This document shows positions 2,769 to 59,944 of a DNA stretch of 64,000 nt, one piece after another (position 1 is the first letter of the stretch; each line of letters starts with the position of its first letter). This stretch comes from Candidatus Falkowbacteria bacterium (GTDB taxonomy: Bacteria > Patescibacteriota > Patescibacteriia > UBA11705 > JABHMO01). Where the stretch lies: the NCBI GenBank assembly GCA_018674305.1, contig JABHAL010000010.1, positions 25,708 through 89,707 of the forward strand. Direction: 5' to 3'. The translations under genes and the position numbers were made by a program. The notes under the pieces were generated by a model. That model was not told the DNA's origin, made no database searches, and saw only the letters and a program-made list of their open reading frames with translations.

Positions 2769-3422
2769 CTAATTGATTTGTTTTGTATTTTCTTTGAACC
2801 AGGACAGTGACACGTAATTTATGTCAGTTTTGCTATCTACGTTATGAGCAACACACAAGTCTCCAGATGAATCTATAAGAAAACCAGTAACTATCCAAGT
2901 GTCAACTTGAACAGCATCTTCGTATTGATATTTTTCACCAATCACAATACCATCAAATTCATTCTTTGCCAAGTAGTACTCTTTACTATTTTCATAAAAC
3001 GGAACATCCGATTCTTTTAATACAGCACCAGGAGAAGTTATTAATACAGACCCATTCTGTCCTGGAAATTTTATAGCGATCTCGTCACTCTCTAATCTAA
3101 GAATAGTGCACCGAATCCACTTTGTAGCATTCCTATAATAAACAATATCTTCAACTGTAATTTCTTCGTCAAACTTAAGATCTTCTATTTTCACCACCTT
3201 TGTCTCAATAAACTCAACAATCTCCTCTTTCTTGGCGATGTAATCGCGCATAACTTGAAGTGCTTCATTGTCACCGGCCTCAGCTTTCTCTTTCAGTTCA
3301 GCAAATCCAAGACCACCTGAGATTTCTTCCAACTCTGACATTAATTTATCAAAATGCACTTGCTGAACTTCGGTGAAGTTAGCTTTGAGGGATTTCTCGG
3401 TTAGTTGTTCTATGCTTTTCAT
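2769..3422 (-). CDS. Paralog-family protein P1: conserved ~75-aa N-terminal helical domain plus a unique C-terminal domain
   Basis: 217 aa. The N-terminus MKSIEQLTEKSLKANFTEVQQVHFDKLMSELEEISGGLGFAELKEKAEAGDNEALQVMRDYIAKKEEIVEFIETK is shared with six other ORFs in this window; the C-terminus is unrelated to theirs. Confidence 0.7.
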   Translation of the reverse strand: MKSIEQLTEKSLKANFTEVQQVHFDKLMSELEEISGGLGFAELKEKAEAGDNEALQVMRDYIAKKEEIVEFIETKVVKIEDLKFDEEITVEDIVYYRNATKWIRCTILRLESDEIAIKFPGQNGSVLITSPGAVLKESDVPFYENSKEYYLAKNEFDGIVIGEKYQYEDAVQVDTWIVTGFLIDSSGDLCVAHNVDSKTDINYVSLSWFKENTKQIN

Positions 3423-3468
3423 ATTTGATATTTTTTAGTAGGTATTGGTTATTGGGTATTAGAAATTT

Positions 3469-3569
3469 TACTCGTTACTGTTCTCGTCCCGCATAGCGGG
3501 ATCCCGTTTGCGGGAGATTTAACATACTTAGTATTGCTTCTCTGCGTAGCGGAGTCCGCTATGCGGACG
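3469..3569. repeat. REPIN-like composite palindromic repeat (copy 1)
   Basis: The arms cccgcATAgcggg and tcccgTTTGcggga, a central agcggAGTccgct, and overall left-arm/right-arm inverted complementarity (cgtcccgcatagcggga ... gtccgctatgcggacg). About 95% identical to the copy at 4281-4380. Confidence 0.7.
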
Positions 3570-3580
3570 TGATTCATAGA

Positions 3581-4222
3581 CTATTCTACTTTTTTAAATC
3601 TATTATTAAAAGATTGTACATCTTCATTAAAAATATCATTATTTACCTTTATTTCAAAATCAAATACCCACAAAACATGAGCTATTCCAGATTGAATAGT
3701 AAAACCAACAATTTTTACCGGCCGAGCCCTGTCTGACTTCTCTATAAAATTATCACCAATCGAGTGTTCGTATAAATCTCTACTAGCTAACAACTTTGCT
3801 TCTCCAAATTGAAGAGTTTTAACGCTACGACTTGATTCCTTTAGCACAAAGCCTATGGGAGTTGTATGTTTTCCTATTGTCTCAGATAAAAACTCAACAT
3901 TATTCCCATCAATGCTTTCAACTGTACCCTTTTCAAATGTTTTACGTCCATAGGATGGAAACATGTAAACAATATCACCAATTTTTATTTTTATTTTCTT
4001 TGTTTCAATAAACTCAACAATCTCCTCTTTCTTGGCGATATAATCGCGCATAACTTGAAGTGCTTCTTTGTCACCGGCTTCAGCTTTCTCTTTCAGTTCA
4101 GCAAATCCAAGCCCACCTGAGATTTCTTCCAACTCAGACATTAATTTATCAAAATGCGCTTGCTGAACTTCGGTGAAGTTAGCTTTGAGTGAATTTTCAG
4201 TTAGTTGTTCTATGCTTTTCAT
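3581..4222 (-). CDS. Paralog-family protein P2
   Basis: 213 aa. Same N-terminal domain (about 93-96% nucleotide identity to P1 over the first ~230 nt of the CDS) with a different C-terminus. Confidence 0.7.
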   Translation of the reverse strand: MKSIEQLTENSLKANFTEVQQAHFDKLMSELEEISGGLGFAELKEKAEAGDKEALQVMRDYIAKKEEIVEFIETKKIKIKIGDIVYMFPSYGRKTFEKGTVESIDGNNVEFLSETIGKHTTPIGFVLKESSRSVKTLQFGEAKLLASRDLYEHSIGDNFIEKSDRARPVKIVGFTIQSGIAHVLWVFDFEIKVNNDIFNEDVQSFNNRFKKVE

Positions 4223-4253
4223 GAGGATTAACTATTGGTTATTGTGTATTGGT

Positions 4254-4277
4254 TATTGGGTATTGGGTATTGGGTAT
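4254..4277. repeat. Tandem heptamer repeat (TATTGGG)x3 on the plus strand, CCCAATA on the coding strand, immediately upstream of the P2 start
   Basis: tattgggtattgggtattgggtatttt. Related degenerate copies occur at 3441-3463, 56563-56590 and 57358-57393, each just upstream of a minus-strand start codon. Confidence 0.6.
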
Positions 4278-4280
4278 TTT

Positions 4281-4380
4281 ATTCGTTATTGTTCTCGTCC
4301 CGCATAGCGGGATCCCGTTTGCGGGAGATTTAACATACTTAGTATTGCTTCTCCGCGTAGCGGAGTCCGCTGTGCGGACA
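4281..4380. repeat. REPIN-like composite palindromic repeat (copy 2)
   Basis: Near-identical to 3469-3569, including the same small hairpins. Confidence 0.7.
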
Positions 4381-4390
4381 AATTTCATAA

Positions 4391-5155
4391 TTATTCATTG
4401 TCTTTTTCTAATACTTCAAAATATTCTGCAACCTTGTCAGTGTTTACCATAATCATCTTTGCAAATGGAAGGCCTTGACCAACGTTAAACATAATTTTTA
4501 CCAATATTTCAAAACCACTCTTTTGTATTTGATCTCCTCGCGGAACTGCAAATCTTTCTATTTCAACATCTTTCACGTCAATGGCCTCAATATGCCAAGG
4601 TAACTCTGGGCAGAACTCTTTAGCCATCGATTGATCAAGAAACTTTAATTTTTGCCCGACCCACAATCCATAATATTTATTTCTTTCAAACACCTCTACA
4701 AAACCTACATTTTCTACATTTATCTCATTTCCTGAAGTTTTAAAAAGCTGATCTTTGTTAACAGGGAGACTAAATCCTTCTTTCTCACCTTCCAATTTAA
4801 TATGAATTATATCAACGACGTCTGAATCTTTCCGAATGATTTCACATTTTTGCCAGACACTGTCCCTATAAATCTGGGCCTGGTCACCAGGGTGTAATTC
4901 AACTTCTTCAAATTTTCCACCCGGAAATTCCTTCTTCTCAATAAACTCAACTATCTGCTCTTTCTTGGCGATGTAATCACGCATTACTTGTAGTGCTTCT
5001 CGATCACCGTCCTCAGCTTTTTCTTTCAGTTCAGCAAAACCAAGTCCACCTGAAACTTGTTCTAACTCAGACATTAATTTATCAAAACGCGCTTGCTGAA
5101 CTTCGTCGAAGTTAGCTTTCAAAGATTTTGATTGTAGTTCAGAGTCGAAATTCAT
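4391..5155 (-). CDS. Paralog-family protein P3
   Basis: 254 aa. The N-terminus MNFDSELQSKSLKANFDEVQQARFDKLMSELEQVSGGLGFAELKEKAEDGDREALQVMRDYIAKKEQIVEFIEKK matches the family; the C-terminus is unique. Confidence 0.7.
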   Translation of the reverse strand: MNFDSELQSKSLKANFDEVQQARFDKLMSELEQVSGGLGFAELKEKAEDGDREALQVMRDYIAKKEQIVEFIEKKEFPGGKFEEVELHPGDQAQIYRDSVWQKCEIIRKDSDVVDIIHIKLEGEKEGFSLPVNKDQLFKTSGNEINVENVGFVEVFERNKYYGLWVGQKLKFLDQSMAKEFCPELPWHIEAIDVKDVEIERFAVPRGDQIQKSGFEILVKIMFNVGQGLPFAKMIMVNTDKVAEYFEVLEKDNE

Positions 5156-5161
5156 AATAAA

Positions 5162-5899
5162 TTATTTTTTTATAGCTTTTTTCAGTTTCTCAATATCATA
5201 AGAGCAAGCAAAACTCAGTGATCCTCCAGTAACAGTATTGAAATCAAAATGAACGAGAGCTAAAAGCTTATCTGGCAGACTACTATTAAAAAAAACTCTT
5301 AAAATTTTTGCGGTTTTAAGTTCATGCTTCTCAAAATCCTTCCTTACACCCTTATCCAAAACGCCCTGAATATCAAAATCATTAGGATCTATCTGGTATT
5401 TTTGAAGTAATTTTAATCCGAAAATCGACTTCACATCAAAATTATAAACAATATCGCCAACTGACATTTCTTCAGTTTTTTGAACTTTTATCAAGTCTTT
5501 TTTTAAAATCCACGGCTCCGCTACCCCGTTAACCCCTGTTCTTATTTTAATCAAATTACCGTTAGCTTCAATATCAATAACTGGACAAATCTTACCATGA
5601 TGACCAGCCCCTGGTTTCCAAAACATAACTTTGTCAAGCACTTCAATATCACATTCCCATGTTATTGGCACCTCCTTATTTTCAATAAACTCAACAACCT
5701 CCTCTTTCTTGACGATATAATTGCGCATAACTTGCAAGGCATCTTTATCACCGCCCTCAGCTTTCTCTTTCAGTTCAGCAAAACCAAGTCCACCTGAAAC
5801 TTGTTCTAACTCAGACATTAGTTTATCAAAATGTCGCTGTTGGCGTTCATCAAAGTTTGCTTTGAGAGATTTCTCTTGTAATTGTTCTAGAGTTTTCAT
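5162..5899 (-). CDS. Paralog-family protein P4
   Basis: 245 aa. Family N-terminus with a unique C-terminus. It lies 6 bp upstream of P3. Confidence 0.7.
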   Translation of the reverse strand: MKTLEQLQEKSLKANFDERQQRHFDKLMSELEQVSGGLGFAELKEKAEGGDKDALQVMRNYIVKKEEVVEFIENKEVPITWECDIEVLDKVMFWKPGAGHHGKICPVIDIEANGNLIKIRTGVNGVAEPWILKKDLIKVQKTEEMSVGDIVYNFDVKSIFGLKLLQKYQIDPNDFDIQGVLDKGVRKDFEKHELKTAKILRVFFNSSLPDKLLALVHFDFNTVTGGSLSFACSYDIEKLKKAIKK

Positions 5900-14236: not shown

Positions 14237-15061
14237 ATGATAGAAAAAATAATAGATGGTAATGATCTAAGCGAAAAATTTATCCAAAAAATTAAAAAGC
14301 AAGTTCGAGAAATGGAAGAAAAACCAAGCTTGGCTGCTATTTTAGTTGGAGATGATCCAAGCTCAAACTTATATGTTAAATTAAAAAAACGAGCTTGTGA
14401 CGAATGCGAAATTGACTTTCATGGTTATACCATCGAAAAAGATTTCTCCGAAGAAGAACTCATCAAAACCATCCACTTTTTAAATTCTGATCCCAGTACT
14501 GACGGGATTTTAGTTCAATTACCTTTACCCCCCCAATATAATACTGACAAAGTTATTGCTGAACTTGATTTCCGGAAGGACATTGACGGTTTTCATCCGA
14601 CTAACCGAGAAAACATGCAGAAATGTGTCTACAAATTAATGCCTCCGCTACCCGGAGCAATTATCGAAATGATCAAATCTACTGGTGAAGTTATTGAGAA
14701 TAAACAAATTTGTGTTCTTTGCAACACCCCAATGTTTGCTGATCCATTTAAATGTGTTTGGCAAGCCAAAAATACAATTGAAGTAATAACGACTAAAGAT
14801 AATTGGTCTGAAGCCACAAAAAAAGCGGACATATTAATAGTCGCTGTAGGAAATCCTAATTTAATTACTAAAGACTCAATAAAACAAGATGCTATCATTA
14901 TTGATGTGGGAATAAACAAAGTTGGCAAACAAATTATAGGTGATGTAGATCTTGATGATGTAATTGAAAAAGTAAAATATATTTCTCCAGTTCCTCGTGG
15001 CGTAGGTCCCATGACCATTGCCATGTTGCTAAAAAACCTTGTTGAACTGAAAACTTTTTAA
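14237..15061 (+). CDS. folD: Bifunctional methylenetetrahydrofolate dehydrogenase/cyclohydrolase
   Basis: 274 aa with PSSNLYVKLKKRACDE, GILVQLPLP and a C-terminal PVPRGVGPMTIAML, which is diagnostic for FolD. Confidence 0.9.
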   Translation: MIEKIIDGNDLSEKFIQKIKKQVREMEEKPSLAAILVGDDPSSNLYVKLKKRACDECEIDFHGYTIEKDFSEEELIKTIHFLNSDPSTDGILVQLPLPPQYNTDKVIAELDFRKDIDGFHPTNRENMQKCVYKLMPPLPGAIIEMIKSTGEVIENKQICVLCNTPMFADPFKCVWQAKNTIEVITTKDNWSEATKKADILIVAVGNPNLITKDSIKQDAIIIDVGINKVGKQIIGDVDLDDVIEKVKYISPVPRGVGPMTIAMLLKNLVELKTF

Positions 15062-15095
15062 AAAAATTTAGGGCCTGCTCCTTAGAGTCAGGCCC
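15058..15095 (-). terminator. Rho-independent terminator on the minus strand
   Basis: Stem gggcctg/caggccc (15071-15095), followed on the minus strand by a U-run (plus A-run 15058-15066). The plus strand has no T-run after the hairpin. Confidence 0.6.
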
Positions 15096-15612
15096 AATAT
15101 TATAACAAGTATTAAACGAACTAGCCCGGTGGCTCTTCAGTCTGCTGCAGAGTCTGCATGCGAACGGCCTCCTTCAAGCTTAACAATTTACAGGGAGGGT
15201 TAAACCGCCCGAATCGAATCACTATTGTTCGATCCTGACTACCTCGACGTTTACGCGATTTTACGCGAAAAGTCTCGATTTTCCAGGTTTTCCAGCCAAG
15301 CTGTTCAGTTAACTGCTCGATGTGTACGTTCACGAGACAAATCCAGGTGGTCGACTTACAAAGTTTCAACATTTCAATTTAATTGCGACCTTTCAAAAAA
15401 CGTACACTATGAGCTCACATCAGCAATCGCCAGTCATTCGTGGTCCCTCCGTTTTTTATTATCAAATTAGCTCTAAAGAACGTCGGACATTTTTCCCCCT
15501 CCGAACTGGGTGCCACGAGCTAGAGGAATCTCTGCTCGCCAACTACGCATGGTGGCATCACCCCCACCTCGGGCTTCACGCTGAATAACTCAAAGGCTCT
15601 CAGCATGAACGT
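15096..15612 (-). ncRNA. Candidate structured ncRNA of about 520-540 nt, identity unresolved (an RNase P RNA or tmRNA class cannot be excluded)
   Basis: A GC-rich (~50%) island in a ~33% GC genome with no credible ORF; the track ORFs here overlap on both strands. It has a consensus promoter on the minus strand upstream and a terminator downstream. It contains long-range complementary segments such as gggtgccac...gtggcatcaccc. Confidence 0.5.
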
Positions 15613-15618
15613 AACTGC

Positions 15619-15647
15619 ATTATAGCATATACTTAACAACTTGTCAA
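15619..15647 (-). promoter_or_regulatory. Sigma70-type promoter on the minus strand (TTGACA-17-TATAAT) driving the candidate ncRNA
   Basis: On the minus strand: TTGACA (plus 15642-15647), a 17-nt spacer, then TATAAT (plus 15619-15624). Both hexamers match the consensus perfectly. Confidence 0.55.
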
Positions 15648-23920: not shown

Positions 23921-23959
23921 ACAAAAAAAGAGGACTAATTCGCATTGCGAATTAGTCCC
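23921..23959 (-). terminator. Strong rho-independent terminator on the minus strand
   Basis: Perfect 12-bp stem ggactaattcgc/gcgaattagtcc with a 3-nt loop, followed on the minus strand by a 7-U run (plus A-run 23923-23929). Confidence 0.75.
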
Positions 23960-25233
23960 TTTACCATCGTTGAACATTGACTTGTGGGCCAACATCCTCG
24001 TACATTAAAGTTTGATTTTACCATTACAGTTTGTCTTTGAGACACGGTTTGTTCATTTGTGAAGTGCTAGTTTTGAAGCTTGGCTTAACCAATTCTTGAT
24101 TTTTGTTTTGTTCTGACCGAGGTCAGTTTCCAACTATTACAAGTTTGGCGACTTACCGTCCCGAAGGATGGCTAAAGATAGTTTATCACTCTATGATTGC
24201 TCATTGAGTTTCCGCTATCAAGTCTTACTTTTGCTTTTTCTTCTAGTTCTTCTGAACATTCCTTGTGTTCTGTTGTCTTGTCAACACTAGGCTGACATCG
24301 CGTGAAGGTTAATTGTCTGACCGAAGTCAGTGAGGAACATTTCGCTAGCCGAAGCTTTTGATTTGTTCTTACTTTTAACTTTCCAGAATACTTTGCTCTT
24401 TGGACATTAGCTGTTTCGTTTACTTGCTGGATTTTTGTTTTCTTCCTTTCGGAGGATCACTTTGTCCACTGGGGTAAACTACTAGTTCGTTTTCTCTGTC
24501 GTTCTGTAGTCTTGCTAAAGCAGTTTTACCAAGGAGTTTTTCGTTTTTACACAAAATACTTCTTGATTTTTTTGCTTTGATGCAAGTTGCTTGCGTTGAA
24601 GATTGGCTCTTGATCTAGTCTTGGCTAGCTTTTTTCTTCTGTTACCGAAGTAACGTCAGAATCCGGTTAACTTTGATTTTGATCCGTCATAGCTTATCTT
24701 CTGCATGCCCACTGATCGATTTTGATTGCGAATTAGCGACGTTTAACTTACTTGCCTCGAAAGGTTTTCTGTCTTTGTCTACTGCTAATTTACTGTTTAG
24801 CTCCATTTATAATAGTAGTCGTTGGTTTTTCCGAAGAAAATCCTGACTGCTAAATAGAGGCCAAATCTGTCATTGCCTTTTCTGAGTGGGTTGGTTACCA
24901 CTACAGTAAAAGCTCGAGATCTGTGGTGCATGTTAGTGTCAAGGCGCTTTTCACGGCTGTGCCCTTAAGTCAGTTGTCCAAGTTAATTTGGAGTATTGCT
25001 ACTCTTTGGTTAACTTTTTCTCCTGTCTCAGGACTCCACCTCAGAACTTGCATTCTTTGGTTTCCCTTGTCTTTACTTGCTCAATTACTTGTAATGAACT
25101 TTGTTGATGGTAATTCACATTATACTCGTATATCAAAACCTGTCAAGTGCCTAACTGTGGATAACTTTTAACTCTATTTTTTGTTTAATTTTAGAGGAAA
25201 ACTTTACCCCATTGACAAAATTATATATTATTG
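23960..25233 (-). ncRNA. Candidate large (~1.3 kb) structured ncRNA on the minus strand
   Basis: Only one short track ORF (24923-25171). The plus strand is T/G-rich and A-poor, so the minus-strand RNA is A/C-rich. At least five ccgaag sites on plus correspond to C(UUCG)G on minus, each flanked by complementary stems (for example gttac-CGAA-gtaac at 24640 and ctgac-CGAA-gtcag at 24318). It ends at the 23921-23959 terminator. Confidence 0.45.
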
Positions 25234-27923: not shown

Positions 27924-27961
27924 ATAAAAAAACAGAGCCTGGTTAGAGAACCAAGGCTCTG
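27924..27961 (-). terminator. Rho-independent terminator after lipoprotein 1
   Basis: cagagcctgg...ccaaggctctg hairpin followed on the minus strand by a U-run (plus aaaaaaa 27924-27932). Confidence 0.7.
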
Positions 27962-27972
27962 TTGTGTTATTA

Positions 27973-28515
27973 CTATTTATCTTCGATAACACGTACCATT
28001 GCCGGCGGAGTGGCCAGCTGAAGTGGCTGATCGCACAGCATGTACGTCCCGCTCCACTCTAGGTAAACATCATCCGTAGTAAAGAAGAAAACCGCGTCAC
28101 CATTGGTTCCGTACGAACCATCGAGCTGCGGGCTTTCCACAACCTTACCACCAACACGTCTACGTGCAAAAGGATCATCGACAATCTGTTCACCAGTAGT
28201 TAACTTGGAGTTAACACTGGAGACCTTACCCTTGATAGTATGAAAGGCCATCACCTTACCATAGCTAACCAGGTAAATGTAGCTGATCTTGTTCGGATCA
28301 TTGAAACGGTTAAGCCGCTTTGACAGGTTATCTCGCTCCAAAGAACTCTCGATCTTGGGCGGCGGCGTGGCCTTGATCAGACGACCCTGCTGCTCTTCCG
28401 TGAAATTGGCCTCTGCCTTCTGGGTCTCACCCTGGCCCTCGTAGGACTCATCATCACAACCAACAAAGGCAGTGAACGCGAAAACACACGCAATTGCCAG
28501 CATAATTTTCTTCAT
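27973..28515 (-). CDS. Lipoprotein paralog 1 (unknown family)
   Basis: 180 aa with signal and lipobox AFTAFVGC. Conserved core LIKATPPPKIESSLER...ISYIYLVSYGKVMAFHTIKGKV...VESPQLDGSYG...PLQLATPP. Local GC is about 50-55%. Confidence 0.7.
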   Translation of the reverse strand: MKKIMLAIACVFAFTAFVGCDDESYEGQGETQKAEANFTEEQQGRLIKATPPPKIESSLERDNLSKRLNRFNDPNKISYIYLVSYGKVMAFHTIKGKVSSVNSKLTTGEQIVDDPFARRRVGGKVVESPQLDGSYGTNGDAVFFFTTDDVYLEWSGTYMLCDQPLQLATPPAMVRVIEDK

Positions 28516-29102
28516 TTCGACACCTCCTCGTCGCTCGTATCAGTCTTGGGATTATCCTCAATAATGCGAACCATCTCCGGAGGAGTAGACAGCTGAAGTG
28601 GTTGGTCGCTCAGCATGTATGCACCGTTCCACTCCAAGTAAATATCGTCCGTGGTGAAGAAGAAAACCGCATCGCCATTAGTTCCATATGAACCATCGAG
28701 CTGCGGGCTTTCTACTACCTTACCAGACCTGCCCTCATGATGAGCAAAAGGATCCTTCACGATCTGCTCACCAGTAGTCAACTTTGAATTAACACTAGAA
28801 ACCTTTCCCTTGATTGCATGAAAGGCCATGACCTTACCAAAATCGACCAAGTAGATATAACTGATCTTGTTGGGATCATTGAAACGAACAAGACGCTTGG
28901 CCAAATTCTCACGCTCCAAAGAGCTCTCGATCTTGGGCGGTGGGGTGGACTTGATCAGACGACCCTGCTGCGCTTCCGTGATCTTAGCTTCTTCCTTCTG
29001 GGTCTCACCCTGGCCCTCATAAGTTTGCTTTTCCGTCTTGCAGCCAACAAAGGCAAACGCCAGAATCAAGCTAAACAAAACCAACGTCTTTCCAGTCCTC
29101 AT
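28512..29102 (-). CDS. Lipoprotein paralog 2
   Basis: 196 aa with lipobox AFAFVGC and ribosome-binding site GAGGAGG. It is about 70% identical to paralog 1, and its stop overlaps the paralog 1 start (ATGA). Confidence 0.7.
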   Translation of the reverse strand: MRTGKTLVLFSLILAFAFVGCKTEKQTYEGQGETQKEEAKITEAQQGRLIKSTPPPKIESSLERENLAKRLVRFNDPNKISYIYLVDFGKVMAFHAIKGKVSSVNSKLTTGEQIVKDPFAHHEGRSGKVVESPQLDGSYGTNGDAVFFFTTDDIYLEWNGAYMLSDQPLQLSTPPEMVRIIEDNPKTDTSDEEVSK

Positions 29103-29226
29103 CGCAACCTCCTCAAGGTTATTAAGATGAATACACTAACAGATAGTGTAAACATCCTATAATATCACATATGAAATACTTTGTCAATAGCGACTGTAAT
29201 TTTACCACAAAGTCGCCCCTTTGAGA

Positions 29227-29263
29227 TAAAAAAACAGAGCCTGGTTAGAGAACCAAGGCTCTG
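29227..29263 (-). terminator. Rho-independent terminator after lipoprotein 3 (duplicate of the 27924-27961 module)
   Basis: Same hairpin and A-run. About 60 bp including the gene 3' end is duplicated (aaaaaacagagcctggttagagaaccaaggctctgtYgtgttattactaYttgtcttcgat). Confidence 0.7.
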
Positions 29264-29274
29264 TCGTGTTATTA

Positions 29275-29817
29275 CTACTTGTCTTCGATCATCCGGACCA
29301 TGGCCGGTGGCGTAGACAGTTGCAGTGGCTCAGTAAGCCACATGTAATCACCTCGCCACTGGACCAATACTTCTTCTGTAGTCCAGAAGAAGATCGCGTC
29401 TTCACTCGGACCATAGGATCCGTCCAATCCAGGACTTTCCATCGTATGTCGAGTTCGTCCAGCGCCAGTTGATCCATCGCCGACCTCGACAACCTGATCA
29501 CGCGTAGTCAACTTAGACGAACAATAAGTAACCTTGCCCTTCACCGTATGAAAGGCCATCACCTTGCCATAACTGATCAAGTAAATATAAGAGATTCGAT
29601 CTTCACGATTGATCTCCTTGAGATACTTCACCAGATTCTCCCGCTCTAGAGAATTTTTCATCTCCGGCGGAGGAGTCGACTTGAGTAACCGTTCCTGGTT
29701 CCTCTCTGTCATTTCCATCTCATCGATGGTAGTCTGGCCAGTATCCAGCGCCTTACCGCAACTGATCATACCCATAGCCAGAACACAGAGAGTAACAATC
29801 GTCATAAGCTTCTTCAT
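29275..29817 (-). CDS. Lipoprotein paralog 3 (diverged)
   Basis: 180 aa with lipobox GMISCG. It is about 45% identical to paralogs 1 and 2 and conserves the TPPPEM, ISYIYLISYGKVMAFHTVKGKV and PLQLSTPPAMVRMIEDK blocks. Confidence 0.7.
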   Translation of the reverse strand: MKKLMTIVTLCVLAMGMISCGKALDTGQTTIDEMEMTERNQERLLKSTPPPEMKNSLERENLVKYLKEINREDRISYIYLISYGKVMAFHTVKGKVTYCSSKLTTRDQVVEVGDGSTGAGRTRHTMESPGLDGSYGPSEDAIFFWTTEEVLVQWRGDYMWLTEPLQLSTPPAMVRMIEDK

Positions 29818-29826
29818 GTCAATCTC

Positions 29827-30342
29827 CTACTGGCCGGGGATAGTGAAATCTGCCGGATGCGTCGCCGGAAGATCATCAGTTTTGAACAGCTCACGGTTGG
29901 CCATTTCAGTTCGCGCATTGTACTTGGCCACCACGTCTCGCCGTTGATTCTGCAGACCCAGCACGATCGTGTTGAGTCGAGAATACTCGGTCTTGTCCTC
30001 GAACGTCCAATCCTTGCGCGGACCAGCGTCTTCCTTGAAGCGCTTGAGCGCCGCGTCAGAATTGACGATCTTGGACTCCAGCGACAGGATATCCTGATTC
30101 GTCTGCTTGAACCACTCGTAGTTCTGGATCACGTTGTCCGCGTCCAGAGTCTTCTCCATGATCTTCACAGCCTGCTCGCCGGGATAACACACCACCCGGA
30201 CAACCGTCCCGATGAGTCCCAACACAATCACAACTGCGAGGATCTTGAAGAACATACTCCAAGGTCCACCTTTGGCCAGGTTGTAGGCCGTGTTTTCGTA
30301 CTTTCGCCCAACATCATCCCATCGATCATCATTCCGTGTCAT
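29827..30342 (-). CDS. LemA-like membrane protein (low-confidence family assignment)
   Basis: Ribosome-binding site AAGGAGGTG before the internal ATG (MTRNDDR). One transmembrane helix (FFKILAVVIVLGLIGTVV) then a helical region with YNARTEMANRELFK, loosely LemA-like. The track ORF extends to 30369. Confidence 0.45.
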   Translation of the reverse strand: MTRNDDRWDDVGRKYENTAYNLAKGGPWSMFFKILAVVIVLGLIGTVVRVVCYPGEQAVKIMEKTLDADNVIQNYEWFKQTNQDILSLESKIVNSDAALKRFKEDAGPRKDWTFEDKTEYSRLNTIVLGLQNQRRDVVAKYNARTEMANRELFKTDDLPATHPADFTIPGQ

Positions 30343-30473
30343 CTCCACCTCCTTAAGGTTTAGACACAAAAATACTTCTATTCAGCAACACAGTTTTCAT
30401 AAGAGTATAGCATAAAGATTAAATACTGTCAACCCTATTACCTAAATTTACAACAGAAATACTATTTGAAACA

Positions 30474-41376: not shown

Positions 41377-41456
41377 TAGTTACCTCATTTTTAATGGACA
41401 CTTCATTATAATTGAACTCCCAAAGTTTGTCAATGTAGAGACATTTTCACAATAGT

Positions 41457-41527
41457 CATTCCGGACTTGATCCGGAATCCCAGGTCTCCTTATAAAGATT
41501 TTTAAGACTCCGGATCAAGTCCGGAGT
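41457..41527. repeat. REPIN-like pair of inverted REP hairpins
   Basis: H1 cattccggacttgatccggaatc, and H2 ctccggatcaagtccggag whose core is the reverse complement of H1. The H1 25-mer recurs identically at 59525-59549 inside murI. Confidence 0.7.
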
Positions 41528-41599: not shown

Positions 41600-43642
<2,043 letters not shown>

Positions 43643-43684
43643 TCAATATATTAACTAATTTTACCCAAAAGGTCAAGGAAATAC

Positions 43685-43713
43685 TTGACAAAACGCAAAA
43701 TGTATGCTATAAT
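43685..43713 (+). promoter_or_regulatory. Consensus sigma70 promoter TTGACA-17-TATAAT
   Basis: ttgaca (43685-43690), 17-nt spacer aaacgcaaaatgtatgc, tataat (43708-43713). The -35 context atacttgacaaaa is also found at 59941. Confidence 0.65.
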
Positions 43714-43719
43714 GAAACC

Positions 43720-43951
43720 TGTTCGTTGAAAATTGTTACTATAGTTAAATTAATTATAGTAACAGGAGTGCCCGACAAAAGCCTTAGGGTGTCAGGCCAA
43801 GAATGTTCATTAAAAGACTGAAATTAAAGAAACCCCAACAAATGGAGATCGTCATGACCTGGACTTAAATTCATTTAGCCCCATCGGACCACAGTAGGTT
43901 GTTAATTCTTAGGAATAACAACTGAAGGTCACAGAGATGGGGCCTTTTTTT
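43720..43951 (+). ncRNA. Candidate ~230-nt small RNA
   Basis: It starts about 7 nt after the -10 and ends with an intrinsic terminator: stem gccccatc/gatggggc enclosing gttgtta...taacaac, then a 7-T run. Internal hairpin gttactata...tatagtaac. No ORF. The following gene is on the opposite strand, so a riboswitch is unlikely. Confidence 0.55.
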
Positions 43952-44828
43952 ACAAAATAATAAATATCCCACCCGCCACAATCAGACCAATCGCCATGGT
44001 CTTTTTTAGTAACACTTTTCTACTATGTCTTTCCAAAATAATTTTAGGATAAAAAAAGCTCAGGAAAGTAGCTGCAAAAAACACCAACATTGGTTTAGTC
44101 GCCATTAAAGCTGAAACCAATGAAACCGAACCCAAACTAATGGCTTTGGTGAAAAAGATTAGGGCCAATCCAGATAAAATCGCAACAAAGCACAAATGAA
44201 TAATTCCCACTTTTGCCTTTTCCCGAATATGAGGATGATGGACCACTAACAAAACTAAAGGAACAACTATTCCACCAATTCCAAACCAGAATAACATTGG
44301 CCAAAAATCAATACCTGAACTTACATACTTAATTAAAATATTTCTCAATGCAAAAAACATCATTGCAACAAAAGCAAAAACATAGAATTTAAATAATTTA
44401 CTTTTGGCCTCCGATTTTCGATGAGTGATTAAAACCGCCCCAGTGATTATAAGTAAAATCCCAATATAGTTCATAATACTTAAGCGTTCCTGAAAAACAA
44501 AAAACGCAATAGCCGAAATCAACAACGGTTCAGTCGATAACATCGGGGCCAGTCGAGAAACTTCAACCTTTTTCATGGCCATATAGTAAAAACCCAGGCC
44601 CGTAGAATAAATAATTCCTGCCAACATTGCCATAATTACCATCCAAACCGGAATAATTACGCCACCATTCAGAACTGCTACTAAAATGAACAGTAAATAA
44701 ATTGTAAATCCAAAAACCGTAGTAACTAAAATAGGGTCTCGTAGTTCATGCCCAATTATATATTTATCCATGATGTTCACCACAGTCCATAAGAGCATGG
44801 CAATTAGAGTAAAAATGATCCAAAGCAT
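43950..44828 (-). CDS. EamA/DMT-family transporter
   Basis: 292 aa with about 10 transmembrane helices in two EamA-like halves. Confidence 0.7.
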   Translation of the reverse strand: MLWIIFTLIAMLLWTVVNIMDKYIIGHELRDPILVTTVFGFTIYLLFILVAVLNGGVIIPVWMVIMAMLAGIIYSTGLGFYYMAMKKVEVSRLAPMLSTEPLLISAIAFFVFQERLSIMNYIGILLIITGAVLITHRKSEAKSKLFKFYVFAFVAMMFFALRNILIKYVSSGIDFWPMLFWFGIGGIVVPLVLLVVHHPHIREKAKVGIIHLCFVAILSGLALIFFTKAISLGSVSLVSALMATKPMLVFFAATFLSFFYPKIILERHSRKVLLKKTMAIGLIVAGGIFIIL

Positions 44829-56482: not shown

Positions 56483-56588
56483 AATTCATAATAAAACTTG
56501 TTTATTGTTTATTGTTTATGATTTAATTTTTATTAATTTATATTTATTGTTTATTTTATTGGGTATTTGGTATTTGTCACTGGTTATT

Positions 56589-57311
56589 CTAACTAATTTT
56601 ATCAAACCCTATCTTAAACGCGCTCAATGATAAACCAGCTACCTTACGCTTCCCAGATACATCAACAGCACTATGATATTCAAATAATACACATAACTTT
56701 TTGGGGTCTTCAGATAAATCCGTAAAAAAACCTATTACACGAGTTTTGTAATCACTATTTGATGACCTGGACTTAAATTCATCACCAACTTTATATCCTT
56801 TATATTCGTGTAGTTCTAATAAAACCTCCTTAATTTGACCAACATTTTCAGTGTTTTCATATTTGGATTCAACTGGTCCGGCAATTTTAATTAAACTAGC
56901 CATTTCAAAAGTATGCCATGAATTAAAAACATCTAGAAAAACCTTAGCAAGTAGTTTAACAGGTTCCACCGTCTCGATTCGTCCAGGTTGAAAATCTCCT
57001 TCTGGGGTCATAACGACTACCCGATCACCCTCCTTCATTTCTGTAATCTCCACAAATTCATTTTCTGGCGATATCTTCATCTCCTTGGTTTCAATAAACT
57101 CAACTATTTCCTCTTTTTTTGTAATGTAATCGCGCATCACTTGAAGCGCCTCTTTACTTCCAGCTTCGGCCTTTTCTTTCAAGTCAGCAAATCCAAATCC
57201 ACCTGAAATTACTTCTAACTCAGACATTATTTTATCAAAATGCGCTTGCTGAACTTCGTTGAAGTTAGCATGCAAGGATTTTTCGGTTAAAGATTGTTCG
57301 GGATTTAACAT
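56589..57311 (-). CDS. Paralog-family protein P5
   Basis: Family N-terminus SLTEKSLHANFNEVQQAHFDKIMSELEVISGGFGFADLKEKAEAGSKEALQVMRDYITKKEEIVEFIETKEMK. A start at M11 (MLNPEQ) is preferred by homology with P7; the track start is 57341. Confidence 0.65.
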   Translation of the reverse strand: MLNPEQSLTEKSLHANFNEVQQAHFDKIMSELEVISGGFGFADLKEKAEAGSKEALQVMRDYITKKEEIVEFIETKEMKISPENEFVEITEMKEGDRVVVMTPEGDFQPGRIETVEPVKLLAKVFLDVFNSWHTFEMASLIKIAGPVESKYENTENVGQIKEVLLELHEYKGYKVGDEFKSRSSNSDYKTRVIGFFTDLSEDPKKLCVLFEYHSAVDVSGKRKVAGLSLSAFKIGFDKIS

Positions 57312-57391
57312 AATTTTCAGTAAACGGTAAACGTTAAACAATAAACCTTTAATTACTTATTGGATATTAGGTATTGGGCATTTGATATTGG

Positions 57392-58117
57392 TTACTCCTT
57401 GGCGTTAGTATTTATTTTCTTGAAATTTCTAGAAAAATCAGCTATATACCAATGACCGACCTTCCTTTTTCCAGCCTTATCTAAATCATAATCTATAAAC
57501 TCACCTAAAATTTTTAACTTTCCGTGAACAAGCACAAATCCTATCAAACGATTTTTCCAGTTTTGGACCTTTGATTTAAACTCGTCACCAACTTTATACT
57601 GCTCAAACTCATGAAGCTCTAATAAAAGTTCTTTGTCATCAACCTCTTCCTCACCAACAACTGTGTATTTTTCACCAACTGGTCCGGCGATTTTAGCTAA
57701 CCTTGTTATCATATATCCACGAGTAACATCTTCCTCATCCATTTTAACGTTTACGCCCAGAAAAGCATCCGGACTTGAGCAGATTGTCCCTATTTGAAAT
57801 TGTCTTGCTCCATCTAAAATTAACACGCTGTCACCATTTTTAAGTTCTGTTATCTCCACAAATTCATTTTCTGGCGATATATTCATTTCCTTTGTTTCAA
57901 TAAACTCCACAATTTCTTCTTTCTTCGCGATGTAATCTCGCATCACCTGAAGAGCTTCCTTACTTCCAGCCTCAGCTTTTGCTTTTAGCTCAGCAAAGCC
58001 TAACCCACCTGAGATCACTTCTAACTCAGACATTAGTTTATCAAAATGAGCTTGCTGACTTTCATCAAAGTTTGCATGCAAAGATTTTTCGATTAAAGAT
58101 TGTTCTAGCTTAAACAT
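57392..58117 (-). CDS. Paralog-family protein P6
   Basis: 241 aa with the family N-terminus. Its C-terminus shares LAKIAGPVGEKY and LLELHEFEQYKVGDEFKSK with P5 and P7. Confidence 0.7.
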   Translation of the reverse strand: MFKLEQSLIEKSLHANFDESQQAHFDKLMSELEVISGGLGFAELKAKAEAGSKEALQVMRDYIAKKEEIVEFIETKEMNISPENEFVEITELKNGDSVLILDGARQFQIGTICSSPDAFLGVNVKMDEEDVTRGYMITRLAKIAGPVGEKYTVVGEEEVDDKELLLELHEFEQYKVGDEFKSKVQNWKNRLIGFVLVHGKLKILGEFIDYDLDKAGKRKVGHWYIADFSRNFKKINTNAKE

Positions 58118-58123
58118 AGTTAA

Positions 58124-58843
58124 TTATCTAATTTTTTTACACTTTAACAAAAAAGGTTCAGGCTCATTATAGTACACAAAATACTTCCCAGTCGCTTCAT
58201 CAACATTATCAATAGTTTCATATAACAATTTAACCACACCACGGTCCAAAACAAATGCAATCAATCGCACTTTATAGGGAGTATTTTTTACCGCAAACTC
58301 ATCACCAACCTTGAAATCTTCATATTGATGAGTTTCTAACAAAAGAACATCCAACTGTTCTTCAGTTGATACAGGGTTGCCATATTTAAGACCAAATGGA
58401 CCAGCTATTTTTGCTAATGTTAGCAATGGACACCTAGTAATTCTCATTCCATCAAAAGCTACTTTTGCCCTTTTACTATCACCAAAATCAAAAAAATCTT
58501 TTATTTCACCTATCTTTCCATGTCTCCATGAACCCTCCTGTAAAAACGTAACCGTATCATTAACTTTTATTTCAGTAATTTCTACAATCGGATTCGCCTC
58601 GAAATCTGGCATTTTCTTGGTTTCAATAAACTCAACTATCTGTTCTTTCTTGGCAATATAATCCCGCATCACCTGAAGAGCTTCCGTACTTCCAGCCTCA
58701 GCTTTTTCTTTTAGCTCAGCAAACCCTAATCCACCCGAGATTACTTCTAACTCAGACATTAATTTATCAAAATGCATCTGCTGAACTTCGGTGAAGTTAG
58801 CTTTGAGTGCGTTTTCTTGTAATTGTTGTTCTGGGTTAATCAT
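58124..58843 (-). CDS. Paralog-family protein P7
   Basis: 239 aa with the family N-terminus MINPEQQLQENALKANFTEVQQMHFDKLMSELEVISGGLGFAELKEKAEAGSTEALQVMRDYIAKKEQIVEFIETK. Confidence 0.7.
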   Translation of the reverse strand: MINPEQQLQENALKANFTEVQQMHFDKLMSELEVISGGLGFAELKEKAEAGSTEALQVMRDYIAKKEQIVEFIETKKMPDFEANPIVEITEIKVNDTVTFLQEGSWRHGKIGEIKDFFDFGDSKRAKVAFDGMRITRCPLLTLAKIAGPFGLKYGNPVSTEEQLDVLLLETHQYEDFKVGDEFAVKNTPYKVRLIAFVLDRGVVKLLYETIDNVDEATGKYFVYYNEPEPFLLKCKKIR

Positions 58844-58927: not shown

Positions 58928-59821
58928 TCATTCGCATGAGAGTATATTCGTATCAATCTTATGTAACTCAATTTTCTCACCAAAAAACTTATCTGCTGTT
59001 TCCTGAAAATTATCGCTTAGATCTGTCACTAAATATTTGGTTTGTGAATTTTTACTTAAATCATTATCAATTTCCGGATGCCTCTTTAAATAATCTTTTA
59101 AACTCTTGGCCACAATCTCACCAGGATTAGGAACCAAGCAATTCGGCCCCATTATTTGTTTAATTTGTTCTATTAATAATGGATAATGAGTACAAGCTAA
59201 AACTAAAACTTGAACCGCTTGCTCTCGCAATGGTTGAATATATTTTTCTAAAATAACTTTGGTTTCAGGTTCATTCATCCAGCCTTCCTCAATCAACGGC
59301 ACCAGCAATGGACAAGCTTGTTGAACTATATTGAGTTCATGAACCTTTGACCCTGAACCTTTACCCCTTCCTTGCCCCTGAATCCTGACTCCTTGACCCT
59401 TTAATTCTACCACATAAATGTTCGAATTAACAGTTCCTCGCGTGCCAATTATTCCAACTTTACTACAACCAAGCCCTGCCACATACTCTGCCATCGGCCG
59501 CACCACTCCCAGTATATTAAATTCGTCATTCCGGACTTGATCCGGAATCTCACGAACAAGGCCGGGTAGCCACTCTTGCTGCAATCGTCTCAACGCTTTC
59601 GCACTGGCAGTATTACAAGCAACTATAATTAATTTGCAACCATTTTTAAATAAATAATCACACGCCTTTCTGGTCAAACCAAAGATAGCCTCATCAGATC
59701 TATTTCCGTAAGGAACATGAAGTGTATCACCCAAATACATATAATCGTATTTCGGCAAACTACGTTTAATTTCTTTTAATACGGTTAATCCACCTAAACC
59801 GCTATCAAAGACACCAATCAT
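58928..59821 (-). CDS. murI: Glutamate racemase MurI, with two repeat-derived in-frame insertions
   Basis: GVFDSGLGGLTV, IVACNTASA, ACTHYP and the rest are MurI-like. ...LVREIPDQVRNDEF... is encoded by the REP-like 25-mer, and GQGVRIQGQGRGKGSGSKV by CAAGG-type simple repeats. Confidence 0.8.
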   Translation of the reverse strand: MIGVFDSGLGGLTVLKEIKRSLPKYDYMYLGDTLHVPYGNRSDEAIFGLTRKACDYLFKNGCKLIIVACNTASAKALRRLQQEWLPGLVREIPDQVRNDEFNILGVVRPMAEYVAGLGCSKVGIIGTRGTVNSNIYVVELKGQGVRIQGQGRGKGSGSKVHELNIVQQACPLLVPLIEEGWMNEPETKVILEKYIQPLREQAVQVLVLACTHYPLLIEQIKQIMGPNCLVPNPGEIVAKSLKDYLKRHPEIDNDLSKNSQTKYLVTDLSDNFQETADKFFGEKIELHKIDTNILSCE

Positions 59822-59944
59822 AGAAAAACAAGATATTAGACAAATATTGACTACTATTAACCTAATATTATAACCTTACTTGCCCAGAGTTCATCGAAGG
59901 GTATTTTACTATTTTAGCAGAAATTACAGTAACAGTAAATATAC

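Follow-up and report, generated by a model that had tools for sequence, protein, structure and literature searches.

A candidate lineage-specific small RNA of Candidatus Falkowbacteria with a perfect 21 nt antisense match to one member of a paralogous gene family

In a 64 kb stretch of a Candidatus Falkowbacteria genome (Patescibacteria, or candidate phyla radiation, CPR), hereafter the window, a promoter-to-terminator unit of roughly 230 nt lies between ligA and a gene for an EamA-family transporter, and it carries a 21 nt segment that is perfectly antisense to a distant coding sequence. We tentatively favour the reading, at somewhat less than even confidence, that the unit encodes an independently transcribed, lineage-specific small RNA (sRNA) that would act in trans as an antisense silencer of one paralogue in a family found in Falkowbacteria only. 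Literature searches turned up no characterised regulatory sRNA in Patescibacteria. If the RNA is transcribed and acts through the 21 nt match, it would be a clean and testable first case in CPR bacteria; it would also exemplify very recent sRNA birth, by insertion into a conserved gene junction together with a precise antisense copy, and, in a reduced genome, control at the RNA level that singles out one member of a lineage-specific, multi-copy family with variable C-termini. The interest of the case thus lies in its CPR host, its evident youth and its unusually long perfect complementarity in trans; in practice its value will be modest pending proof of expression.

A 21 nt segment of the RNA is antisense to a single paralogue

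The RNA gene and its predicted target comprise the following features (all coordinates are window positions).

43685–43713, plus strand: sigma-70-type promoter, TTGACA (43685–43690), 17 nt spacer, TATAAT (43708–43713), 12/12 matches
43733–43765, plus strand: 5′ stem-loop, an inverted repeat of 14–15 AU-rich bp starting at about +14; −13.3 kcal/mol, z −5.6
43768–43798, plus strand: small GC-rich hairpin with an AAAA bulge and a C(UUAG)G cap; −9.8 kcal/mol, z −1.3, not significant alone
43799–43877, plus strand: A-rich linker; z +1.41, 185/200 shuffles folding at least as well
43854–43874, plus strand: antisense segment ATGACCTGGACTTAAATTCAT, identical to plus-strand 56762–56782 in a self-comparison of the window
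43878–43951, plus strand: intrinsic terminator, a 66 nt compound hairpin (43878–43943), one C, then T7 (43945–43951)
56589–57341, minus strand: predicted target gene, last of three tandem paralogues, ~240–250 aa
56762–56782, minus strand: predicted target site, within the coding sequence (CDS) 56589–57341, codons D-E-F-K-S-R-S

Because the same-strand copy of the 21-mer sits inside a minus-strand gene, the RNA is antisense to the mRNA of 56589–57341; the two are perfectly complementary over 21 nt, plus one G-U pair, and the target site is 12.9 kb from the RNA gene. This complementarity, the most telling feature of the unit, had gone unremarked in the initial annotation. The match is not due to chance. 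Among 3000 dinucleotide shuffles of the RNA the longest match was 20 nt, attained once, and the composition-aware expectation of such a match is ~3e-5 for the RNA against the window and ~0.004 for the window compared all-against-all. Nor is the 21-mer a decayed gene fragment or part of a longer homology, because identity in the flanks is random: over 80 nt on each side, kept in register, 21/80 and 24/80 positions agree (26% and 30%), and local alignments score as those of shuffles do.

The complementarity singles out one gene. The other six paralogues in the window match at most 14/21 positions, and in another 60 kb of this genome, around other family members, matches do not exceed 14 nt and the RNA does not recur. 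When the linker was paired with the 63 translation-initiation regions of the window, none gave a better interaction than shuffled controls.

The segment is also accessible. It sits just before the terminator, in the linker, which alone among the parts of the RNA has less structure than its shuffles, and has a mean unpaired probability of 0.62; opening energies are 4.5 kcal/mol for the RNA segment and 8.3 kcal/mol for the mRNA site, and the energy of the 21 nt duplex is −31.8 kcal/mol.

The two 21-mers were also considered as att sites, that is, as direct repeats bounding a 12.9 kb island. This was rejected, as the genes just inside the interval (EamA, a 266 aa and a 188 aa gene) are syntenic in relatives.

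The predicted target belongs to a family of unassigned, partly variable proteins

Seven copies of the target family occur in the window (2769–5899 and 56589–58843, minus strand) and more elsewhere in the genome (loci L019–L021); the family was found only in Falkowbacteria and has no Pfam or NCBIfam match. Its members combine a nearly invariant helical N-terminal module of ~80 aa, which includes the sequence MSELEVISGG, resembling a double-glycine leader, with variable C-termini, carrying WD40 in some members. In the AlphaFold model of the target (pLDDT 86), four N-terminal helices lead into two small beta-barrels with a weak resemblance to tandem Tudor, KOW or Agenet domains (Foldseek E ~1e-3). 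The 21 nt site maps to the point where the second barrel begins, within the variable half of the protein.

Intergenic heptamer tandem repeats accompany both paralogue clusters, with TATTGGG/TATTGGT repeated 7–9 times and TTGTTTA repeated 8 times, at 4233–4291 and 56498–56555.

A perfect promoter and a compound terminator delimit the RNA unit

The TTGACA-17-TATAAT promoter is exactly as the initial annotation of this DNA described it, with an extended −10 TG in addition (43705–43706). Transcription would start at ~43720–43721, giving a transcript from ~43720 to 43951. Exact 12/12 promoters number six in the window, against 0.10 expected in composition-preserving shuffles, an enrichment of ~60-fold; all six are intergenic, three of them upstream of protein genes and three upstream of long stretches free of open reading frames (ORFs). 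Because of this excess and of their uniformly intergenic placement, a perfect promoter in this genome is very likely functional.

The compound terminator followed by T7, likewise proposed from inspection of the letters, is borne out by pairing, fold energy and z-score. Its base stem is an 8 bp GC-rich pairing of GCCCCATC (43878–43885) with GATGGGGC (43936–43943), which encloses GTTGTTA/TAACAAC; with a folding energy of −28.0 kcal/mol (z = −6.57), the hairpin is more stable than every one of 200 shuffles. Its compound shape is atypical and escaped a simple terminator scan, which accepts only loops of 3–8 nt. The last two T of the T7 tract overlap the EamA stop codon.

Between these ends the predicted minimum free energy fold is a chain of four separate hairpins, and the RNA can be described as a stable 5′ stem-loop, a small hairpin, a 79 nt unstructured linker and the long terminator hairpin followed by U7. 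The 5′ stem-loop may protect the 5′ end or, as a DNA palindrome, may act as an operator; recurrence of its half-site elsewhere does not exceed chance. A C(UUAG)G cap is shared by the small hairpin and the apex of the terminator, and with CTTAGG occurring 14 times in 128 kb (both strands) this is suggestive, as an observation made post hoc. No repeats flanking any segment of the RNA region were found.

The linker, whose mean unpaired probability is ~0.6, contains a 21 aa ORF (43803–43868), a CCCC run, GGAG (43843–43846) and the antisense segment, within which a 4-codon ORF begins (ATG at 43854, with GGAG upstream). The description of the transcript as ORF-free therefore holds only roughly, since these two short ORFs lie inside it. 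The initial annotation had further pointed to a recurrence of the extended −35 context at 59941. The 13 nt exact repeat ATACTTGACAAAA is real; it is at chance level (BLAST E 0.7), six of its 13 bases being the −35 hexamer itself, and carries no weight.

Both neighbours are on the opposite strand, as had been noted. ligA (41600–43639, minus strand; identified by Pfam domains and by the 100% identity of its product to a protein that NCBI lists as LigA of 'Candidatus Falkowbacteria bacterium') is divergent from the RNA gene, and the EamA-family transporter gene (43950–44828, minus strand) is convergent with it. Since both flanking genes are on the minus strand and no same-strand gene follows, the unit cannot be a leader or riboswitch, and the earlier exclusion of that possibility holds.

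The locus is not an assembly artefact: a second sample, assembled independently (L015, MEGAHIT k141), has the identical sequence, with 0 mismatches over 6.8 kb.

The RNA matches no described family and occupies a variable junction

Across the whole window no Rfam 15 family reached its gathering score, and the interval 43600–44000, searched at E ≤ 10, returned only noise (eukaryotic lncRNA, miRNA and snoRNA models); ARAGORN found no tRNA or transfer-messenger RNA (tmRNA) in the window. The initial annotation had left open whether the RNA might be 6S or signal recognition particle (SRP) RNA, and suggested Rfam as a check; with no Rfam match, neither identity is supported. Like 6S and SRP RNA, the unit is stand-alone, strongly promoted, apparently non-coding and 100–250 nt long; unlike them, it has no covariance-model match, a different architecture and no conservation. 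In the case of 6S RNA (RF00013), a string of hairpins takes the place of a rod with paired ends; in that of bacterial SRP RNA (RF00169/RF01854), the domain IV motif is absent and the loops are UUAG and AAU. RNase P RNA and tmRNA were set aside for want of any recognisable match (Rfam, and ARAGORN for tmRNA). The RNA thus belongs to no described family and is, in kind, an ordinary intergenic promoter-to-terminator small RNA. That it might nevertheless be a highly divergent housekeeping RNA missed by the Rfam models is exceedingly improbable: CPR RNAs are often divergent and the strongly promoted, stand-alone character would fit, but even E ≤ 10 yields no match, there is neither a 6S-like rod nor an SRP domain IV motif, no relatives were detected in the sequences searched, and a housekeeping RNA would not be expected as a lineage-specific insertion at a junction that lacks it in relatives.

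Synteny was examined at the ligA loci of 12 GTDB genomes and three further relatives. The GTDB loci retrieved with LigA were all from Patescibacteria/CPR, and the next-best LigA proteins in a collection of 5.8 billion sequences are 74% identical. EamA lies directly upstream of ligA in six relatives (LigA 64–74% identical), with a different spacer in each: 0 nt in L002, 75 nt in L001, 134 nt in L016, an ORF of 177–186 aa in L003 and the P0006 contigs, and two unrelated ORFs in L017. Because the relatives' junctions lack the RNA and are filled differently, the 310 nt spacer is a lineage-specific insertion at a variable junction. The spacer is not a pseudogene, having no protein-level similarity to the 186 aa ORF of L003 or, beyond the 21-mer, to the paralogue family; nor did protein-level comparison support a decayed copy of any gene in the window.

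The EamA–ligA junction is an insertion hot spot in its own right (L001, L002, L003, L016, L017, L018). It is empty in some relatives, holds an unrelated ORF of 151–186 aa or an opposite-strand ORF of 100 aa in others, and holds the RNA gene here.

The sole candidate promoter for ligA, at a match level also expected by chance, lies back-to-back with that of the RNA.

43648–43676, minus strand: weak candidate ligA promoter, TTGACC, 17 nt spacer, TAATAT; 9/12 matches

If used, it would leave ligA with a leader of 0–3 nt, almost leaderless. Together with the low use of Shine-Dalgarno sequences in the window, a near-leaderless ligA suggests widespread Shine-Dalgarno-independent or leaderless initiation in this organism.

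A proposed route to silencing of one paralogue

From this anatomy we infer, conditionally, that the RNA is made, that it pairs with its target in vivo and that the outcome is repression. The strong promoter would give rise to an RNA of ~230 nt that presents an unstructured 21 nt segment at the 3′ end of its linker, and positions 43854–43874 would anneal in trans, with no mismatch, to coding sequence of the 56589–57341 mRNA. The resulting duplex of 21–22 bp could block elongating ribosomes or, more probably, be cut by RNase III, in either case leading to post-transcriptional silencing of that paralogue alone. Two helical turns of perfect double-stranded RNA suffice for RNase III, and it is through this enzyme that IstR-1 and other trans-acting type I antitoxins, with duplexes of 19–21 nt, exert their effect. 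The abrupt edges of the match and the lineage-specific insertion suggest that such a regulator would have been born recently, having captured a short piece of sequence antisense to its target.

This layout has the attributes of trans-encoded base-pairing sRNAs, namely a promoter of its own, an intrinsic terminator and an accessible region complementary to a distant mRNA. Among the sRNAs of Gram-positive bacteria, RoxS/RsaE and SR1 act in trans and have their own promoter and intrinsic terminator. The RNA described here resembles this type in its 5′ stem-loop and in an unstructured interaction region placed directly upstream of a terminator with a U-tract. It differs in offering 21 contiguous perfect bases to a coding sequence instead of a short imperfect seed to a ribosome-binding site, in having no sequence or Rfam relationship to these sRNAs, and in not being conserved even in its nearest known relatives. 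In duplex length, in perfection of pairing and in the expected cleavage or translational block it is closer to the sRNAs of type I toxin–antitoxin pairs; IstR-1/tisB and OhsC/shoB combine ~18–21 nt of perfect complementarity with RNase III. Unlike the targets of type I antitoxins, the predicted target is not a small hydrophobic toxin but a protein of 240–250 aa with helices and Tudor-like barrels, and it is not adjacent but 12.9 kb away. Membership of the type I antitoxin class was rejected on a further count, in that the one 23 aa hydrophobic ORF on the minus strand (43784–43855) has no promoter of its own up to EamA; T-rich antisense frames yield peptides of this kind by chance.

Several points weigh against silencing in trans. 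The case is built from sequence analysis. The RNA has no homologue, and hence neither covariation nor conservation supports it: nhmmer (--max) and blastn detected no counterpart in the ligA–EamA loci of relatives, scans of viral sequences for the 21-mer and for hairpin 2 gave 0 matches, and a distant blastn comparison with phages and plasmids gave only noise (E ~1). A metagenome scan with the hairpin-2 pattern also gave 0 matches; as this species itself was not found there, the collection probably lacks the population. Across samples the population is essentially clonal, so that RNA and target offer no variants to compare. Most known trans-acting sRNAs use short, imperfect seeds at ribosome-binding sites, not 21 perfect bases of coding sequence. 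As ~124 kb (~12%) of a genome of >1 Mb was inspected, other and better targets may exist. Finally, a brief episode of templated copying could have left the 21-mer behind as a neutral relic.

Alternative readings of the unit

This last consideration leads to the alternative that survives best, which we regard as possible, if rather unlikely: a real stand-alone sRNA in which the 21-mer is a neutral relic of the way in which a young sequence was assembled, for example a templated patch, and whose function or targets are different. The RNA might then bind or sequester a protein through its two CUUAGG-capped hairpins, or act on targets elsewhere in the genome. Promoter and terminator anatomy fit such an RNA equally well, no conservation indicates selection on the 21-mer, the inspected part amounts to ~12% of the genome, and two C(UUAG)G caps are to be compared with ~0.025 CTTAGG expected in 232 nt. 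The cap observation is post hoc, however, and a longer copy should have left similarity in the flanks, where none was found. Moreover, the 21-mer falls within the accessible linker, beside the terminator, at just the place where base-pairing sRNAs carry their seeds.

It is unlikely that the unit is instead a small mRNA, or a dual-function RNA, for the 21 aa basic peptide MFIKRLKLKKPQQMEIVMTWT (43803–43868), with the hairpins as its 5′ untranslated region. The ORF is wholly inside the transcript, in its unstructured A-rich part, and the terminator begins 10 nt past the stop codon. The missing Shine-Dalgarno sequence is no argument against it, because only 13/50 likely genes of the window have such a motif within 20 nt upstream. 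Against this, 21 codons in AT-rich sequence are within chance expectation, and no similar peptide is encoded by the window, the additional 60 kb of the genome or the loci of relatives. A coding role also leaves the 21 nt match unexplained, the match starting at codon 18 and running past the stop codon.

Equally improbable is a spacer with no dedicated product, a filler that terminates EamA and promotes ligA, its plus-strand promoter being fortuitous or a source of divergent interference. The variability of the EamA–ligA junction among relatives and the lack of conservation of the RNA are what such a filler would show, and the hairpin folds on the minus strand as well (−25.9 kcal/mol). Yet a 12/12 promoter with an extended −10 TG arises by chance ~0.1 times per window, and the other five perfect promoters all precede genes or long ORF-free units. 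The polarity of the terminator points the same way: T7 is on its plus-strand side, and on the minus-strand side there is just a tail of mixed A and T.

Very unlikely, in our estimate, is a translation-coupled attenuator, in which a ribosome on AUG-ACC-UGG-ACU-UAA (43854–43868) would modulate read-through into RNA antisense to EamA. The AUG follows GGAG at a distance of 6 nt, 10 nt separate the stop codon from the base of the stem, and the convergent EamA gene is directly beyond the terminator; this is nonetheless architecture only, for no alternative antiterminator structure is predicted, most genes here have no Shine-Dalgarno sequence, and the 21 nt match is again unexplained.

Slighter still is the likelihood of a free-standing, self-targeting guide RNA, made up of a scaffold, a 21 nt guide and a structured 3′ module, that would direct an unseen protein of the Cas12/TnpB/TldR or Cas9/IscB kind to 56762–56782. 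If true, it would amount to an RNA-programmed system for paralogue choice, encoded away from its effector and switching off one family member. Guide RNAs of TldR were reportedly described by Wiegand and colleagues in 2024. Like CRISPR-type, TnpB, TldR and tigRNA guides, the unit carries a genomic match of about 20 nt that is exact, of guide length and abrupt at its edges, in an RNA with structured modules on either side; on the plus strand TTTG directly precedes the protospacer-like site, where the RNA gene has CGTC. This flank is weak, post hoc evidence, since TTTV precedes 2.9% of all positions. Unlike the CRISPR, TnpB and TldR cases, no effector gene accompanies the RNA: the large window ORFs that were scanned contain no Cas, TnpB, IscB, Argonaute or reverse transcriptase domain. 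The window has no CRISPR-like or other tandem array, nor did a second copy of the scaffold appear in 124 kb of the genome or in the metagenome and viral collections. TIGR-Tas tigRNAs and IS110 bridge RNAs can be excluded because their guides are split into two: they use two segments of 8–12 nt that read opposite strands and are not contiguous, and they are defined by box C/D-like flanks, usually in tandem units beside a Nop-domain or recombinase gene (PMC12045711). Here there is one contiguous stretch of 21 nt, on one strand, with no tandem units.

Other elements of the window

Two larger orphan RNAs of ~0.56 kb and ~1.2 kb are indicated by two of the other perfect promoters, and may be of greater interest than the RNA treated above. 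The first promoter (15647–15619, minus strand; TTGACA-17-TATAAT with an extended −10) heads a unit at 15055–15647 of ~560 nt that is GC-richer, has no ORF of ≥90 aa and ends in a GGGCCTG...CAGGCCC hairpin followed by T7 near 15095–15060. Its fold z-score is −2.5, and Rfam gave no match to it even at E ≤ 1.

The second (25146–25119, minus strand) heads a unit of ~1.2 kb at 23925–25146, again with no ORF of ≥90 aa. It is A-rich, contains at least six hairpins with CUUCGG/UUCG-type tetraloops and ends in a 16 bp hairpin with T7 near 23955–23925. With a fold z-score of −4.1 over 976 nt and no meaningful Rfam match, it is a candidate for a large structured RNA of no assigned class.

Two exact repeats were also noted. 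The 25 nt repeat GTCATTCCGGACTTGATCCGGAATC, with the palindrome TCCGGA..TCCGGA, occurs in intergenic positions downstream of ligA (41455–41479) and near 59.5 kb (59525–59549), with an inverted partial copy nearby (41509–41525), and looks like a REP-like or terminator element. A 39 nt repeat forming a terminator-like hairpin, AAAAAACAGAGCCTGG...CCAAGGCTCTGT, is found at 27924–27962 and 29226–29264, downstream of two paralogous 180 aa genes within a cluster of four similar genes (27973–30369).

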